The translations under genes and the position numbers were made by a program. The notes below the pieces were generated by a model. The model was given only the letters and a program-made list of their open reading frames with translations. It did no database searches and was not told where the DNA came from. A stretch of DNA of 64,000 nt. Origin: a virus. The stretch is taken from the IMG/VR virus record IMGVR_UViG_3300042462_000689; one strand, 5' to 3'. Positions 1,234 to 40,446 of this stretch are shown here, piece after piece (the first letter of the stretch is position 1; every line of letters begins with the position of its first letter).

Positions 1234-3707
1234 CTCATCTCCACAATCTTCGGCAGCCCCTCGTAGTTCATCGGCGGTGTCTTGCCTCCGTAGAAATTCT
1301 CCAGCAGCCCAATCATGCTGTGCACGTCCGCCGTGCAAATGCCGTTCTCAATGGAGGCGCTGCGGCATTCACGCGTCATCTCCAGCAGCAGGTCCTGCAG
1401 GTCCACGTCCTTGATGGTGCCCAGCCGGATGGAGATGGTCTGGTTGGTGATGTGTTGCGTGAAGAATTCGGTGCCTCGGGCAAAGGGGATCTGATTGAGC
1501 AGGCGCTCAACGGTCTGATGCAGCGGCTGGGACATGGGCCATTCGAGGCCGGTGGCATTGCGTATGATGGAGGCCCCCTCCCGCGCCAGTGCCGCCGAAT
1601 TGCTCACGCTGCTGAATACCTTCAGGGCCGACCCCTGCGTGCCCATAATCCATTGCACACATTGCTGCATAATCCGCGGCACCATGAGCATCACCCGGCT
1701 CATCGTCGCATCGTCCACCGCACAATGCACCGCCTGCCCGTAATCGCTCAAGGACACAAGTGCCTGTTTTGATTTCTCCATCTGCCCCTGTGAGGCGCCG
1801 GTGACGAGCATGGGGAATCCTCGGCAGCCTTTGATCTCCACGCTGGATCCTTCCCGCGAGGAGAACGAGTATGGCTCCAATTGCCCAAGCGCCCGGAACA
1901 AATTGCGCATGATGTAATTGCCCTCCGGGGTGTAGATCAGACAGACCGGTTTCGTGGGGAAATCGGCGTAGCCACGTCCGACCATGCCAACGAGCTGGCT
2001 GATCAAATCTGCCACTGCCACGGGCACATCGGTCGTATTCTCGCCAGGCACCGGGGTCAGGGTGAGATCGTAAATTTTCCAGAAATCGCAAAGTGGATTG
2101 CCGTAGCGGATGTCCGGATTCCATTCCTTCGCCGTGACCTTGCCCCATGGCGTCATGAAGGCTTTGCGGCGCTCCGTCCAGCCCACGCCATCCAACCCCT
2201 CCACGCGCGGCAGGTTCTCGCTGATGGATCGGAAATAGACCAGAAGCTCCCTTGCATAATTGCGCTCGCGAATTGTTGGAAGTTTTCCGGCGGGATTATC
2301 TTCCGGCTTCGCCAGCTCCGACACACGCGCCGCATCTTCCAAAGTACTGAGTGCCTGCAATTGCTGACTGGTGAGCGAAAACGGATATTCCTTCCCCTGA
2401 AACTGCAGGACGCCCATGTGACAGGTCGCCTTGGAATCCACGAACACCACGTTGTTGCGCAATTCGAGGGTGAAATTCGTGAGGTCCACTTTCGAGCCAT
2501 CATCCCGGATGACATGATAGCCGTGGGCGGTGCGGTAATAGGAAAGGCTGCCGTCCTGGTGGATGAGCCGGGTCTGCCGGATACGCTCGACGGTGGCGGC
2601 CCAGTCCAGCTTCCCGTCCTGCTGCAGCTCGGAGATTAGCGCGGTGTAATGCCGGTCGCTGTATCTCAGGGCGCTGATGAGTAGCCCCACGCCCGCGTCC
2701 ACCCCCTTTCGCGCATGTGCTGCCTCCGCCACATGACGCACCACAAAATCATCCCAGGTTTCTAATTGATCATCCTCCGCCCGCTTCACGCTCACCCTCC
2801 CATTGATGGCCAACTCCGCCACTCCCGAGAGCCCGGCCGCGGATTCCTTTCGTAGATGAAAAGTCACTTCCTGCGGCTCCCACAACTTCTCCGAGCATTT
2901 GGGGCGGTAATGCACGCAGACCGCGAACCGGTCCCGAAAGGCCACGGCATTGACCGAATTGGCAGCCAGCGCCATGGAGTCGCTGGTGTGCAATTCGATG
3001 CGCTGACAATGCGGGTGAATGTCCAGCAGGCCGGTGTAGGCGAAGCGGCACTCATTGAGCCAGTTGACGATTACATCCTCGGGCCGTCCTGAAGGGTAGG
3101 CCATCCACCCCGTAATCACCGCCGGCGAGGAGTACAGCGGAATCACCACCGCGGCCTGGGAATTGGAAATGGGAAGCGGGGAGAGGGTGGCGTCCGGGTA
3201 GGCCGTGGTCGCCTTTTTGACGAACTCCTTGTAGCGCGCCCCGCTCAGCACCAGACACGAAGCGGACTGCGCTGCGATTTGGATGCCAGCGGTGCGCAGC
3301 CAGCCTGCCGTCTGCACCTCTGCAATCATCATCGAATTGCCCGACATCTCGGAGGCTTCCAGCAGGAATTGAATCAGGGCCCGGCGGTCCTCCAATTGGT
3401 GGGCAATCTGGCTGATGTCCGGATCGGGGTCGTGGGCGAAGCGGGAAGGGTAGGCCGTGAGGACGCTTTTGACGGCGGTTTTGTATCCGCCATCCAGCAG
3501 GGCCATGAAGTCCATCGCCGTGCCTACACGGAACTTGCAGCGCTTGTGTTCGCAAATGGCGTAGGTGGAAAAGGCATGCAGGGCGCCTCCACAGGACGGG
3601 CATTTGAGCAGCAGGCTGCGCGTGCCGCTCGTGACTTCCCCTTTGTGGAAATCATGAAGCACTTCGAGCATCGTAATTGATCGTTCGAGAAACTCAGGTG
3701 AGAGCAT
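1230..3707 (-). CDS. large Zn-ribbon protein, putative primase/helicase-like DNA-binding protein
   Basis: Long ORF (ATG at 3707; TTG at 3746 is the alternative start); N-terminal CPSCGG...CEHKRC zinc ribbon resembling primase Zn fingers; no clear catalytic motifs, so function is tentative. Confidence 0.6.
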   Translation of the reverse strand: MLSPEFLERSITMLEVLHDFHKGEVTSGTRSLLLKCPSCGGALHAFSTYAICEHKRCKFRVGTAMDFMALLDGGYKTAVKSVLTAYPSRFAHDPDPDISQIAHQLEDRRALIQFLLEASEMSGNSMMIAEVQTAGWLRTAGIQIAAQSASCLVLSGARYKEFVKKATTAYPDATLSPLPISNSQAAVVIPLYSSPAVITGWMAYPSGRPEDVIVNWLNECRFAYTGLLDIHPHCQRIELHTSDSMALAANSVNAVAFRDRFAVCVHYRPKCSEKLWEPQEVTFHLRKESAAGLSGVAELAINGRVSVKRAEDDQLETWDDFVVRHVAEAAHARKGVDAGVGLLISALRYSDRHYTALISELQQDGKLDWAATVERIRQTRLIHQDGSLSYYRTAHGYHVIRDDGSKVDLTNFTLELRNNVVFVDSKATCHMGVLQFQGKEYPFSLTSQQLQALSTLEDAARVSELAKPEDNPAGKLPTIRERNYARELLVYFRSISENLPRVEGLDGVGWTERRKAFMTPWGKVTAKEWNPDIRYGNPLCDFWKIYDLTLTPVPGENTTDVPVAVADLISQLVGMVGRGYADFPTKPVCLIYTPEGNYIMRNLFRALGQLEPYSFSSREGSSVEIKGCRGFPMLVTGASQGQMEKSKQALVSLSDYGQAVHCAVDDATMSRVMLMVPRIMQQCVQWIMGTQGSALKVFSSVSNSAALAREGASIIRNATGLEWPMSQPLHQTVERLLNQIPFARGTEFFTQHITNQTISIRLGTIKDVDLQDLLLEMTRECRSASIENGICTADVHSMIGLLENFYGGKTPPMNYEGLPKIVEMS

Positions 3708-36186: not shown

Positions 36187-39100
36187 ATGAGTGAAAAACT
36201 ACAAAGCCCCACGCCCGCCCCTGGCGAAATTGAAATCGGCATGCCGACCAGCCTTGTCGCCCGCAATAAAAAGGTGGGGGATCGGCTGCTGGTCGCCGGC
36301 GAGGGCAAAATCCCGGCCGAGATCATGTTCGTGGCTACGGCGGTGGATGAGGACGAGGCCGTGGACCATATCAAGGGCTCCTACGGGCGCACCATCCCTC
36401 AGCGCGCCCGGTATCTGAAGGGAGCCGCCGGATGCATCCTCTCGGACATCCTGGCCTCCATCGGCATTGACATCTACGACCACTACTACACGGCGGTCAT
36501 CAAATGGCTGCTGCCTCGACAGGATCGCAATCGCCCCAAGCAGACGCTCGTCGCGCAATCCATGCCCATCCTGCTGGACGAGATCAAACGGGTGCAGCCG
36601 AAGATCATAGTCACGTTCGGCAAGGTGGCATTCGATGCCGTGTTTCCGAACCGGATGAAATTCGACTCGGTGAGGGCGGGCTGGTTCTACTCCGAGCAGC
36701 ACGAGGCCAAAATCTTTGTGATGCAGGATGTCAGGAAGCCGGTTTATGAGCCGGCGCAAATCGAGGCGTTCCGCATGGAGCTGCTGGAATTGCGCAAGAT
36801 GCTGGATGAGACCAGGGGAATTGAAGTGGTCAAATCGCCGGAGGATTACCAAATCATCTCCACACCAGACCAATTGGTTGAGTTCACCAAAATGCTCGCC
36901 GGGGAGAAACAGCATCTCCTATCGGTGGACTGCGAGTTCGGCGGCAGGAATCACGTCGATGGGAGGCTGCGCTCGCTGCAAATGGAATGGACGCCAGGAC
37001 GGGCACGCTATATCCGGCTGATGGATGACAAGCTGAACATTGCCTTCCCAGGGGGATACGAGGCTGCCGGTCAAATCCTCCAACCGCATTGCAATGACCC
37101 CAAGACCAAATACATCGGCTACCATATCTCCGCGGATTTGCCGTGGATGCATACGTGGTTGGGCTTGGACTGGTATCAAAAGGCAATGATCGATGTGGAA
37201 GGTGCGCAGCAGGTGCTCGATGAGAATGCCGAATTGGGATTGGAGAGGCTGGCGTTGCAATACACAGCACTGGGACGCTACGACATCCCATTGGAGCTTT
37301 GGAAGTTGGATAATCGGGAGAAGGTCTCGGACGACCTGGGCTACCTGCTGATCCCGGACGAGATCCTCGTGCCCTACGCATTAAAGGATGTGTCTGCGCC
37401 GATGATCGCCGCCCCACAGATCATCAAGCGCCTGATGTCCGACAAGACCTGGGAGTATTACCGGGACTACCGGCATCACCTCGTCACAGACATCTTCACG
37501 CAATTTGCTTTGCTGGGACTGCCAATTAATAAAGCTAAAATAGATATCCTCCGCGACCTCTACAGCTACGCGCGTGAGCTGCTGGAGAAGAAATTCATCC
37601 ACGAGTTGCGGATTGAGTCCGGGCAATTGCTGCTGAAGGCGATGCTCTCCGCATCCAAGGACCCGAAATGCTTTGGCGTGTATCAGGAGATCCTGACCAT
37701 GGCGGCTGAGGGCCATCACGTGGAGGCGGAGGCGCGGTTGAAGGAGTTCGTGATGCCTGATCTTGATCTGATCAAGCATACGACATCCAAACAGGATTTT
37801 GAGATGGCAAAGGCCATGGCCGCGGAGACGGAGAAGAAAGTACTGCCGGCGCTGCATCATTTCCTGGAAGCCCCCAATTTCAATGTGCGGTCGGCGGACT
37901 GCAAGAAGCGGTGGCTGTTCGACGTCAAAGGCATGACGCCCGTAAAGACCACCAATCGCAAGGAGGCGGGGCTGCCATCAATTCCATGGAGCCGCGTGCA
38001 GAATCTGCCGCCCCACATCGCGGCGCAATACGCCCCGGCCTGCGACAAGCAGACGCTCAAGATGCTGGCGGATGACACGCAGGATGCATTGCTGCGGCGG
38101 ATGCTGGACATGCTCGCCGTGGGCAATATTGCGAAGTCATGCTTCAAGCAGCCGCAGGTGGATGAGTTTACGGGGGAGATCGTGAAGGAGAATGGGTTGC
38201 ACACCTGGATTGCGGGCGATGGGTACATCCATCCAAATAATTCTGTGACTGAAACGGGGCGTCCTCGGGGTTGGAAGCCAAACTACTTAAACTGGGCCAA
38301 ATATATTCATAAAGGCGTGGCTCGGGGGATTGCTGAGGTATTGAAGGAGCAGCATGATATCGGCGAATTGCCCGAGAAATTTCAAGTGTTCCTGGATCCA
38401 GATGCGATCCCAAGCGTGCGTAGTATTGTAGATGTTACGGAACTGCCTCCGCTCGAAGGGTCCGTTGGCTGGTGCTTTAGTGACAGCGATTTCGCTACGG
38501 CAGAAATTAGATCTATGGCGTTTTTGAGCGGGGATGAGAACCTGATCCGCTTGATGACGGAACCGGACGATCAGTTTGGGTTGGCAAAAGTGAAGGATAA
38601 AAAGCATTCGATTCGTTTGCGTTATGCTTCCGACTGCGGCATTGATGAAAAGAACTGGAGATCTGAATTCATTCTGACTTCAGCGACCAATGGAAAAATA
38701 GAGGCGCGTGTCTCGTGGGCTGAATTGCTGCGCAAAGATGGAAAGCTAATTCATCCGCCACATGATTTGCACTGGTCACTGGTGGAGTGGGTGCAAAACA
38801 ATCCACGCGAACTGTTCGACGCCGAGATCGATCGCGGCGGCACGGGCAAGCCAGGGAATTTCTGCATCGCCGAAGATGAACTCGTGCTGACCGGTCGCGG
38901 GTGGATAGCAATTCAGAATGTTCTTGGTTGCGATGTCCTATGGGACGGCGTAGCGTGGGTCCATCATGAAGGACTCAAATACAACGGAATTGCTGAAGTG
39001 CGAAACTACCAGGGATTGCGCGCGACCGACGGACACGAAGTTTGGGATCGAGACGGAAGAAAAATCTACTTCGGGCAGGCGCGCACACAACAAATTGAAC

Positions 39101-40446
39101 TTGCCTCAATTGGTGGAGCGGGCCAAAAAATTGAATGTGCCTGGCCTGATAGTTTTCCCCGAAACGATTCACAGAACGGGGTCGGGATACTTTCACCTGA
39201 TGACGCAATGCACTTTGTGCGGAAAACAACTGGAGAAAGAGATCCGGAATTTGGAGCAGGGTTTTTCCAGCAAGTGCCATTGTCAGAGGCTGGGGGCGCG
39301 TGCGGCGTACGGCGTAGCGCGACCGTTGACGAAGACGCTCGGCACTCGATACAATGCGATGATGCAGCGCTGCTACAAAGACACGCACGTGTCGTCGTAC
39401 AATTACAAGATGCGCGGCATTCAAGTGTTGTTCAAATCTCGCCGGGATTTTGTGACGTGGGCGTTGGAGAAATGGCCGGAGGAGACATTCAAGAAAAAGG
39501 ACTTCGACAGGATCGACAACGACGGACATTACTCGAAAGAGAATCTTCGGTTGGTGGATCGTCGGACGAATTTGTTGAATCGGAGAAGACCCAAAGATGT
39601 GGACATTCAGACCGCACGGGACTTCATGGCACGGCATCCCGAGGTGAATTACACGGCGACCACGTGCTACGGGTTATTCCGGCTGGGCATGAGCGAGTAT
39701 CAAATACTGGAACGCCACAGGAACAGCAGCAAGGCAGGGTGGAGAAAGTCAGGGTCTACGACATCATAAACGCGGGGCCGCGAAATAGGTTTGTGTGCTC
39801 CGGGATACTTGTGTCGAATTCCACCTCGTACGGAGCTACAGCGAGCACGCTGGATCGTCAAATCAAAGCCATCATTGGCAAGTCACCACCAGAAGGCACA
39901 GGGCAAGGTATTTTGGATGCCCTTCGACGCAGACAGCCCGTGGCGGTGGAATGGCTGGAGGCGCTTGCGGAAATACCAGGATCACAATATCCGGAATACC
40001 AATTGGAGTCGGGGCAGAAGCGAAGGTTCCATGCCCACCGTTCATTTGTTCGAGGGATGGATGAAAGGACCAAGAACAGCATCCTCTCCGGATTGAGCAG
40101 ACAGGCGCGAAATTTTCCGAACCAAGCCATCGTGGCCGATACATCGACGAAAGCGGTGAAGAATCTGATGGCGTATTACCGGCAGTATGGATTTCGGTCC
40201 TACCCGCTGGTGATTTTATACGACTCCGTGGTGAGCTGTGGTCCCGTGGAAGAGCGGTTCCATGTGGCAGCGGCGCATCAGCGATTCATGACGACGGAAA
40301 ACTGCTGGCATAACCACGGTAGGACTTGGAATTTTCCGATCGACACCGGCTTCACATTGGCGTGGGGATCGAAGCCCTCAGATGATATGAAAAAGAAACT
40401 CAACGACAAGACTTGGCACAGCGAGGCCCCATGGCTCAAGCTCTGA
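36187..40446 (+). CDS. polA: family A DNA polymerase with N-terminal UDG-like domain, 3'-5' exonuclease and an intein
   Basis: UDG family 4-like N-terminus; SVDCE/YHISAD/YALKD exonuclease motifs; TETGR; SDFATAEIR motif A; K..NF|STSYG motif B; RNFPNQ; ILYDS motif C. Confidence 0.92.
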   Translation: MSEKLQSPTPAPGEIEIGMPTSLVARNKKVGDRLLVAGEGKIPAEIMFVATAVDEDEAVDHIKGSYGRTIPQRARYLKGAAGCILSDILASIGIDIYDHYYTAVIKWLLPRQDRNRPKQTLVAQSMPILLDEIKRVQPKIIVTFGKVAFDAVFPNRMKFDSVRAGWFYSEQHEAKIFVMQDVRKPVYEPAQIEAFRMELLELRKMLDETRGIEVVKSPEDYQIISTPDQLVEFTKMLAGEKQHLLSVDCEFGGRNHVDGRLRSLQMEWTPGRARYIRLMDDKLNIAFPGGYEAAGQILQPHCNDPKTKYIGYHISADLPWMHTWLGLDWYQKAMIDVEGAQQVLDENAELGLERLALQYTALGRYDIPLELWKLDNREKVSDDLGYLLIPDEILVPYALKDVSAPMIAAPQIIKRLMSDKTWEYYRDYRHHLVTDIFTQFALLGLPINKAKIDILRDLYSYARELLEKKFIHELRIESGQLLLKAMLSASKDPKCFGVYQEILTMAAEGHHVEAEARLKEFVMPDLDLIKHTTSKQDFEMAKAMAAETEKKVLPALHHFLEAPNFNVRSADCKKRWLFDVKGMTPVKTTNRKEAGLPSIPWSRVQNLPPHIAAQYAPACDKQTLKMLADDTQDALLRRMLDMLAVGNIAKSCFKQPQVDEFTGEIVKENGLHTWIAGDGYIHPNNSVTETGRPRGWKPNYLNWAKYIHKGVARGIAEVLKEQHDIGELPEKFQVFLDPDAIPSVRSIVDVTELPPLEGSVGWCFSDSDFATAEIRSMAFLSGDENLIRLMTEPDDQFGLAKVKDKKHSIRLRYASDCGIDEKNWRSEFILTSATNGKIEARVSWAELLRKDGKLIHPPHDLHWSLVEWVQNNPRELFDAEIDRGGTGKPGNFCIAEDELVLTGRGWIAIQNVLGCDVLWDGVAWVHHEGLKYNGIAEVRNYQGLRATDGHEVWDRDGRKIYFGQARTQQIELASIGGAGQKIECAWPDSFPRNDSQNGVGILSPDDAMHFVRKTTGERDPEFGAGFFQQVPLSEAGGACGVRRSATVDEDARHSIQCDDAALLQRHARVVVQLQDARHSSVVQISPGFCDVGVGEMAGGDIQEKGLRQDRQRRTLLERESSVGGSSDEFVESEKTQRCGHSDRTGLHGTASRGELHGDHVLRVIPAGHERVSNTGTPQEQQQGRVEKVRVYDIINAGPRNRFVCSGILVSNSTSYGATASTLDRQIKAIIGKSPPEGTGQGILDALRRRQPVAVEWLEALAEIPGSQYPEYQLESGQKRRFHAHRSFVRGMDERTKNSILSGLSRQARNFPNQAIVADTSTKAVKNLMAYYRQYGFRSYPLVILYDSVVSCGPVEERFHVAAAHQRFMTTENCWHNHGRTWNFPIDTGFTLAWGSKPSDDMKKKLNDKTWHSEAPWLKL
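38863..39819 (+). mobile_element. intein (319 aa) in PolA motif B
   Basis: Starts CIAEDELVLT, block B ATDGHEVW, block F VYDI, ends ILVSN followed by Ser; removal restores KPGNFSTSYG. Confidence 0.92.
38966..39769 (+). CDS. HNH homing endonuclease nested in the intein in the +1 frame
   Basis: CTLC...CHC, RYNAMMQRCY...YNYKMRGIQV...FDRIDNDGHYSKENLR...NLLNRR; true start codon uncertain. Confidence 0.85.
   Translation: MKDSNTTELLKCETTRDCARPTDTKFGIETEEKSTSGRRAHNKLNLPQLVERAKKLNVPGLIVFPETIHRTGSGYFHLMTQCTLCGKQLEKEIRNLEQGFSSKCHCQRLGARAAYGVARPLTKTLGTRYNAMMQRCYKDTHVSSYNYKMRGIQVLFKSRRDFVTWALEKWPEETFKKKDFDRIDNDGHYSKENLRLVDRRTNLLNRRRPKDVDIQTARDFMARHPEVNYTATTCYGLFRLGMSEYQILERHRNSSKAGWRKSGSTTS

Follow-up and report, generated by a model that had tools for sequence, protein, structure and literature searches.

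The DNA polymerase gene (polA) of an uncultured phage, recorded as IMGVR_UViG_3300042462_000689 and analysed here in a window of 64,000 nucleotides, is interrupted within its motif B by an intein, and the centre of this intein is overprinted in the +1 frame by a second gene, encoding an HNH-like protein. We consider it likely that the two make up a composite selfish element, in which a mini-intein carries an independent HNH gene in its endonuclease slot and homes into intein-less polA. This reading is built on the architecture of the locus, its conservation among relatives, frame-specific selection, the HINT fold predicted for the intein, an intein-less close relative and mosaic flanks.

By deduction from the sequence, the reading extends to splicing, the translation start, nuclease activity, the target site and homing. 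The class-1 mini-intein would be translated within PolA and would excise itself, restoring the essential polymerase. The gene occupying the endonuclease slot would be translated by internal initiation at ATG 38966, giving a zinc-cluster and His-Me-finger (HNH-type) protein. This nuclease would most likely cut intein-less polA near the DNA coding for motif B during co-infection, and repair of the cut genome would bring in the intein together with the nuclease gene and adjoining extein DNA. The element's own genome would be protected by the interruption of the target site by the intein. This would resemble collaborative homing, in which a free-standing endonuclease works together with an intron that has none.

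The polymerase intein and the gene overprinted on it

The genome is a single contig of 185,656 bp, with a GC content of 57%. A single open reading frame (ORF) on the + strand (36187 to 40446, 1419 aa) spans the whole region, intein included, and encodes a UDG-exonuclease-PolA protein with family-4 UDG-like, 3′-5′ exonuclease and family A polymerase domains, as found with Pfam and PHROG. The N-extein (36187 to 38862, +) comprises the UDG-like and exonuclease domains and the polymerase up to motif B, where it ends with GKPGNF. It matches Pfam UDG, DNA_pol_A_exo1 and DNA_pol_A as well as PHROG 17, and is 89% identical to P0023, the closest polymerase relative, which is intein-less. The C-extein (39820 to 40446, +) begins with STSYG, completes motif B and is 64% identical to P0023. 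Motif B of family A polymerases follows the pattern K-x-x-N-F-G-x-x-Y-G, and we take the joined flanks, GKPGNF and STSYG, to be this motif. The junctions read GKPGNF/C and N/STSYG, and the same place in P0023 (locus L026, 8641-8720) reads GKGGNF-SSAYG uninterrupted, so that the gene closes exactly when the intein is left out.

The intein itself (38863 to 39819, +) is 319 aa long, begins with Cys1 (codon 38863-38865) and ends with Asn. As the original prediction had it, splicing blocks are present at both ends. The N-terminal splicing region (38863 to 39114, +; residues 1-84) holds blocks A and B, the latter with a T55-x-x-H58 motif whose T55 and H58 are invariant in the intein alignment (A2). 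The C-terminal region (39733 to 39819, +; residues 291-319) holds block F, which reads VYDIINAGPRNRF, and block G, ILVSN, followed by Ser as the +1 residue; in the same alignment Y299, D300, A304-R307, R309, F310, V317 and N319 are invariant, and the terminal Asn of the relatives is followed by S or C. Cys1 is present in 10 of 11 aligned relatives. The remaining one (L013, 3673-4455) starts with Ala (NFGF/AIDGEAMVLT...), with the other splicing blocks conserved; either this is an intein of the Ala1 type, or the copy is inactive.

Between the two regions lies a linker of 206 aa (39115 to 39732, +; residues 85-290), stop-free, not conserved, predicted to be disordered and rich in G, R, Q and S. 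It contains no LAGLIDADG motif, as the earlier description had it. An AlphaFold model of the intein frame, built with 11 related sequences, gave a pLDDT (predicted local distance difference test) score of 86-95 over residues 1-84 and 291-319 (86-90 in the latter), and below 50 over residues 85-290. Compared with the PDB, the model was closest to the Mtu RecA intein (2imz, Z 16.6), gp41-1 (Z 16.2) and NpuDnaB (Z 15.8); 31 PDB chains were found at Z of 8 or more, and every listed one is an intein or another HINT domain. The only profile match of the intein was PHROG 26005, whose function is not annotated. On its modelled structure, the insert is a class-1 mini-intein with a HINT fold. Its position in an essential gene, together with the purifying selection on its splicing regions reported below, suggests that it splices.

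The second gene (38966 to 39769, +; 267 aa plus TAA) lies in the +1 frame, so that two frames are indeed open over this part of polA. It had been proposed to end before block F; its stop codon (39767-39769) lies inside the block, at the codons for D-I-I-N. An AlphaFold2 model of its product showed blocks with pLDDT 72-92 over most of residues 45-256, the folded part of the protein (39098-39733, +). Residues 1-38 were disordered in the model, and variable among homologues (alignment A1). The folded part includes a Cys4 cluster (C82, C85, C104 and C106; ~39209-39283, +) and a putative beta-beta-alpha core (residues 178-205; ~39497-39580, +), modelled as two strands (178-182 and 194-198) with a short turn of helix after them. 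The four cysteines are invariant in the family, as are H141, D181, R182, Y189, N193, N202 and N205 (alignment A1).

The description of this product as a clear HNH nuclease stands in part. It matches three PHROG profiles annotated HNH, namely 374 (3.6e-21), 3377 (3e-19) and 2081 (1.9e-12); the word "clear" was too strong for a protein without Pfam or NCBIfam match, in which an invariant Arg replaces the catalytic His. Endonuclease VII PHROG 1035 matched weakly (E 1.1e-3), and Pfam Endonuclease_7 not at all. The database held 19 homologues, mostly full-length or nearly so, 18 of them at 46-62% identity and one, P0004, being a near-identical self-match. At E up to 1e-3, a profile made from 14 homologues retrieved 49,219 cluster representatives; at 1e-30 the number was 75. 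A search of all 185,656 bp of the genome found neither the HNH gene nor the intein a second time.

Selection on the two frames and recurrence of the layout

Substitutions were counted by codon position in place of a formal ratio of nonsynonymous to synonymous rates (dN/dS), which is unreliable here because the frames overlap and sites are saturated at 50-60% identity. The GC content by codon position was 0.58/0.37/0.71 in the polymerase exteins. In the intein centre it was 0.48/0.41/0.69 when read in the +1 frame and 0.69/0.48/0.41 when read in the intein frame; the coding GC pattern of the genome is thus followed there by the +1 frame only. In a codon alignment of seven members (39098-39736), amino-acid identity ranged from 0.28 to 0.72 in the +1 frame, against 0.15 to 0.48 in the intein frame. 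Upstream of ~39050, the intein frame was conserved as much as the +1 frame or more, and at block F both frames were conserved. For one close pair of loci, L023 and L024, the 95 central differences were distributed 23/15/57 over positions 1/2/3 of the +1 codons (binomial p 9e-8). Read in the +1 frame, 62 of them are synonymous and 33 nonsynonymous; read in frame 0, the numbers are 18 and 77. In the N-terminal overlap of the same pair, 4 of 4 differences were synonymous in frame 0. From these alignments, purifying selection acts on the HNH frame in the middle of the element and on the intein frame at its ends. Purifying selection on the intein-frame linker, which would have told against the overprinted gene, was not seen, and the centre of this pair showed the reverse.

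Using separate extein, intein-end and HNH queries in tblastn, we mapped the layout in related loci. The order N-intein (frame f), HNH (f+1), C-intein (f), with the host frame open, was found in 12 fetched metagenomic or viral loci (L004, L008, L009, L010, L012-L015, L018, L019, L021 and L022), 11 of which are distinct, L021 and L022 being the same element. An f+2 layout was found in the Salmonella Jerseyvirus vB_SenS-Ent1 (L001, nuclease ORF 2474-3217) and in EBPR siphovirus 2 (L002), whose GenBank annotation mentions "splicing domains" only, or nothing. The host gene was in every case a family A polymerase interrupted within motif B, at insertion points that differ among loci by no more than a few codons (NF/S, NFS/S, NFGL/CYG, GKA/C, SELA/C). 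The family thus includes culturable Salmonella phages, in which splicing, internal initiation and homing are open to direct test. A nucleotide search of GenBank phages with the region itself gave no match. Among windows of 206 codons taken from the genes of this GC-rich genome, 1.1% have an open −1 frame. An open second frame in one copy alone is therefore weak evidence; the recurrent series is not. Frame 0 was stop-free in all 13 related inteins, the third frame carrying 5 to 52 stops. In L004, at 44% GC, the third frame has 30 stops and the intein frame is still stop-free.

These data bear on two simpler explanations of the open +1 frame. The first is that the +1 ORF is a decaying relic of an in-frame HNH intein which suffered two compensating frameshifts, so that only the mini-intein still functions. 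In-frame HNH inteins do exist (cited in bioRxiv 10.1101/2025.01.02.630785), and at the above rate of 1.1% an alternative frame that stays open is no great rarity here. However, the +1 ORF is full-length and retains every invariant residue of a family diverged to 42-61% identity, substitutions are strongly biased towards sites synonymous in the +1 frame, and the two-frame layout recurs in the 12 fetched relatives, including the low-GC one. Frame-resolved conservation, substitution bias and stop counts largely refute the relic, which we reject as highly improbable. The second is that two indel errors of sequencing or assembly surround an ordinary in-frame endonuclease domain. Nothing but its a priori possibility speaks for such an artefact, whereas the same frame relationship was found in 14 independently assembled loci, isolate phage genomes included, frame 0 is stop-free throughout, and the cluster of the intein-bearing polymerase protein occurs on 6 contigs. 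This recurrence and the stop-free frame 0 lead us to reject the artefact, whose likelihood is negligible. Under the composite-element reading, the same series means that an overprinted gene can persist for long inside an essential polymerase gene.

Mobility, start of translation and chemistry

Sporadic occurrence of the intein was apparent among polymerases. The nearest polA relatives are ~1100 aa long, and therefore without intein; their identities over residues 560-892 are 75, 72, 63, 61, 61, 59 and 56%. Many more distant polymerases are ~1370-1440 aa long. Compared with P0023 (1101 aa), the extein is 88-100% identical over residues 1-650, with a nucleotide identity of 0.85-0.97. From residue 651 (nt 38137) to the end of the gene, identity is 46-84% (nucleotides 0.53-0.73, third positions 0.28-0.60), and the gene after polA is back to 84% identity with the intein-less relative. 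The intein therefore sits in a diverged mosaic tract of ~2.3 kb (38137 to 40446, +), compared to an otherwise near-identical intein-less relative. Such a tract around the insertion fits what co-conversion during homing would leave. With 85-97% nucleotide identity over the first 650 polA codons, the intein-bearing and intein-less genes form a clean natural pair for studying the target site and the co-conversion tract.

The start of the nuclease gene is likely the conserved ATG 38966, which arises from the intein codons CAT-GAA (His-Glu). It is favoured because it is the sole start codon common to all close relatives: all 9 loci fetched from the long subfamily retain CAT-G (the gene in L025 being the same as that in L024), no other start codon is shared by them in the first 45 codons, and in L008 there is no alternative start within the first 60 codons. 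The TTG and GTG codons at 39095-39131 were rejected, as they are not conserved; the TTG near 39104 had been put forward as start in the original prediction. Five codons upstream of the ATG, a +1-frame TAG (38951 to 38953, +) is formed by a conserved GTA-G of the intein frame; of the 11 relatives aligned, 9 have it, counting the TTA-G of L008. GTA is a rare Val codon, and GTA-G is kept at 38950-38953 of the window and at the equivalent places in L004-L019, from genomes of 44 to 61% GC. On these alignments, its conservation looks like a constraint at the nucleotide level, possibly for clearing +1-frame ribosomes or as part of the initiation region.

The stored automated gene call for this gene, P0004, covers 39200-39769 of the window and gives 189 aa from ATG 39200. 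We rejected this start, which would delete a conserved and confidently folded helix and sheet (residues 46-78); the call loses the conserved helix and most of the beta-sheet preceding the Cys4 cluster. Automated annotation misses such genes or truncates them, as here.

Several observations weigh against the composite-element reading, and are gathered here. As to the intein, no Pfam or NCBIfam intein model matched its frame at E up to 1, and its penultimate residue is Ser, as first noticed, in place of the His that is common, if not universal, in class 1 inteins. This Ser is a family trait and not a lesion of the copy in the window: it is found in 9 of 10 relatives of the +1 type (V-S-N), with His in L018, Ent1 and EBPR. 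Inteins without a penultimate His are reportedly able to splice. As to expression, the Shine-Dalgarno sequence before ATG 38966 is weak (−3.3 kcal/mol), and no promoter-like site was found upstream of this ATG, the promoter and terminator scan being at chance level. Six relatives were scored for comparison: four had a Shine-Dalgarno of −5.8 to −6.4 kcal/mol, one of −2.4 and one of −3.0. As to the product, an invariant Arg (D181-R182) stands where the first strand ends and where HNH enzymes canonically have their catalytic His. Neither Pfam nor NCBIfam gave any match for the protein, or for six of its HNH relatives, a PDB sequence search with the HNH profile returned nothing at E up to 10, and Foldseek of the model against PDB returned nothing significant. 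The best structural match, PacI (PDB 3m7k; residues 112-207, Z 6.1, root mean square deviation 2.7, 82 aligned), was modest and tied with an unrelated chain. Lastly, the mosaic tract could stem from recombination unrelated to homing.

The weak Shine-Dalgarno and the missing internal promoter speak for an alternative in which the nuclease would be made by programmed +1 ribosomal frameshifting, as a fusion of N-extein, N-intein and HNH with no free protein. A natural protein of this kind, joining N-extein, N-intein and HNH in one frame, exists elsewhere (P0132). Against frameshifting stand the conserved ATG and the +1-frame stop kept just upstream of it, as well as the first 38 residues of the +1 protein, variable and disordered; no slippery site was noticed by eye, no formal search for one having been made, and each event would cost one polymerase molecule. 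The suggestion of a frameshift in the original prediction thus found no support, and we hold this mode of expression to be very unlikely.

The chemistry of the product raises another alternative, namely that the +1 protein is real and selected without being a nuclease, and acts in DNA binding or regulation, the intein serving as a safe landing site. The invariant Arg in place of the catalytic His, the absence of a Pfam HNH match and a structural match to an HNH enzyme of only Z 6.1 speak for it, as does the fact that some His-Me-finger groups without His are thought to be inactive (PMC5714182). On the other side, the protein matches HNH profiles of PHROG with E-values of 1e-19 to 1e-21, and has invariant N193, N202 and N205 together with Y189. 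PacI, which belongs to His-Me finger group 20, has no catalytic His and employs a Tyr of the inter-strand loop in its place (PMC5714182), and Y189 is invariant and lies in the loop between the two modelled strands. Sporadic distribution and mosaic flanks, moreover, point to an active mobility function. We therefore see a non-nuclease role as unlikely. An HNH-type protein, possibly PacI-like, is a reasonable reading of the predicted structure, and a nuclease remains the partner of the mini-intein in the reading that we prefer.

Known systems and other layouts in the family

Intein endonucleases encoded out of frame are already known from preprints of 2025-2026, so that the layout is, as had been surmised, unusual without being unprecedented. 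In actinobacteriophages, inteins have been described whose endonuclease lies in a separate frame ("frame 3", endonuclease VII-like) or is antisense, and it was proposed that they originated when an intein was invaded by a free-standing endonuclease gene, with evidence of continued transfer (Gosselin, Arsenault and Gogarten, bioRxiv 10.1101/2025.01.02.630785). As in those inteins, the splicing domain and the extein share one frame here, a complete endonuclease ORF occupies the endonuclease slot in another, and the in-frame reading of this slot is structureless. The present case differs from the published same-strand case in frame (frame 2, or +1, instead of frame 3), in endonuclease family (a different HNH family instead of endonuclease VII-like), in host gene and in phage group: the host is motif B of a family A polymerase in an uncultured phage of ~186 kb, whereas the others reside in actinophage genes, the polymerase listed being Pol III alpha. 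A cyanobacterial dnaX intein with an out-of-frame homing endonuclease and sporadic distribution has also been reported (bioRxiv 10.64898/2026.09.14.751524). At the level of the description given in its abstract, it resembles the present element in being a replication-gene intein, in its out-of-frame endonuclease and in its sporadic distribution, and differs in its cellular host, its gene and its endonuclease.

Three other systems share part of the architecture. ShiLan, found in methylase genes of phages, is an insertion with a "hidden" HNH that is out of frame (Arsenault et al. 2025, PMC11855218). There too the HNH gene is overprinted on an insertion open in the host frame, and in both cases the mode of translation is a question; unlike the methylase insertion, which lacks splicing domains, the nuclease gene is here flanked by a complete HINT domain. 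In fractured genes (Dassa et al. 2009, PMC2677866), the intein is split and its two halves are separated by a free-standing endonuclease gene. The present element likewise has an endonuclease gene of free-standing type between N- and C-terminal intein halves, but its host gene is unbroken, being one ORF of 1419 aa with no stop in the intein. PacI, finally, resembles the modelled protein in having zinc-cluster motifs around a beta-beta-alpha core without catalytic His, and a Tyr in the inter-strand loop, the equivalence of the Tyr being by position only; it is however a restriction enzyme and not a homing endonuclease, and shows no match at the sequence level.

As for the origin of the element, the proposal that a free-standing HNH gene invaded a mini-intein agrees with the existence of free-standing relatives, one of which directly follows polA in Salmonella phage SAP012, while the invasion itself is deduced. 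The element supports the view that inteins acquire endonucleases by capturing free-standing homing endonuclease genes.

Relatives of the element in other arrangements were also encountered, and those in L005-L007, L011, L016 and P0132 look like fractured genes. In L005 (3800-5188; also L006 and L007), L011 (900-1925) and L016 (3400-4019), a UDG-exo-PolA ORF ends at motif B, a few codons past its Lys or Gly-Asn, and directly behind it stands a free-standing member of this HNH family. The downstream DNA available for these loci showed neither intein blocks nor a C-terminal part of the polymerase; in L011, the product of the gene after HNH looks like one of restriction or helicase type. The polymerase genes of these loci may be fractured or truncated, the contigs ending soon after. 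In P0132 (1177 aa), the polymerase N-extein and the N-intein lead, without change of frame, into the HNH protein's C-terminal two-thirds, then stop; it may have arisen from the same element by deletion, or be its split-intein form.

It is conceivable, if on balance doubtful, that one His-less, possibly PacI-like HNH lineage has colonised family A motif-B DNA in at least four layouts (a +1 overprint in the intein, a +2 overprint in a homologous intein, an in-frame N-intein fusion, and a free-standing gene behind a polymerase truncated at this site), and that it is the first homing endonuclease with PacI-type chemistry. Were this so, the HNH family would offer a natural series of association and dissociation between inteins and homing endonucleases.

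The neighbourhood of polA is a phage-type replication module, with an SbcC-like protein, helicases, a DnaB-like helicase, a primase and a UvsX-like recombinase. Elsewhere in the UDG-exo-PolA family, five members of 1467-2006 aa (P0058, P0073, P0093, P0099 and P0108) carry LAGLIDADG_2 (PF03161), and the family therefore also hosts intervening elements with canonical endonucleases.

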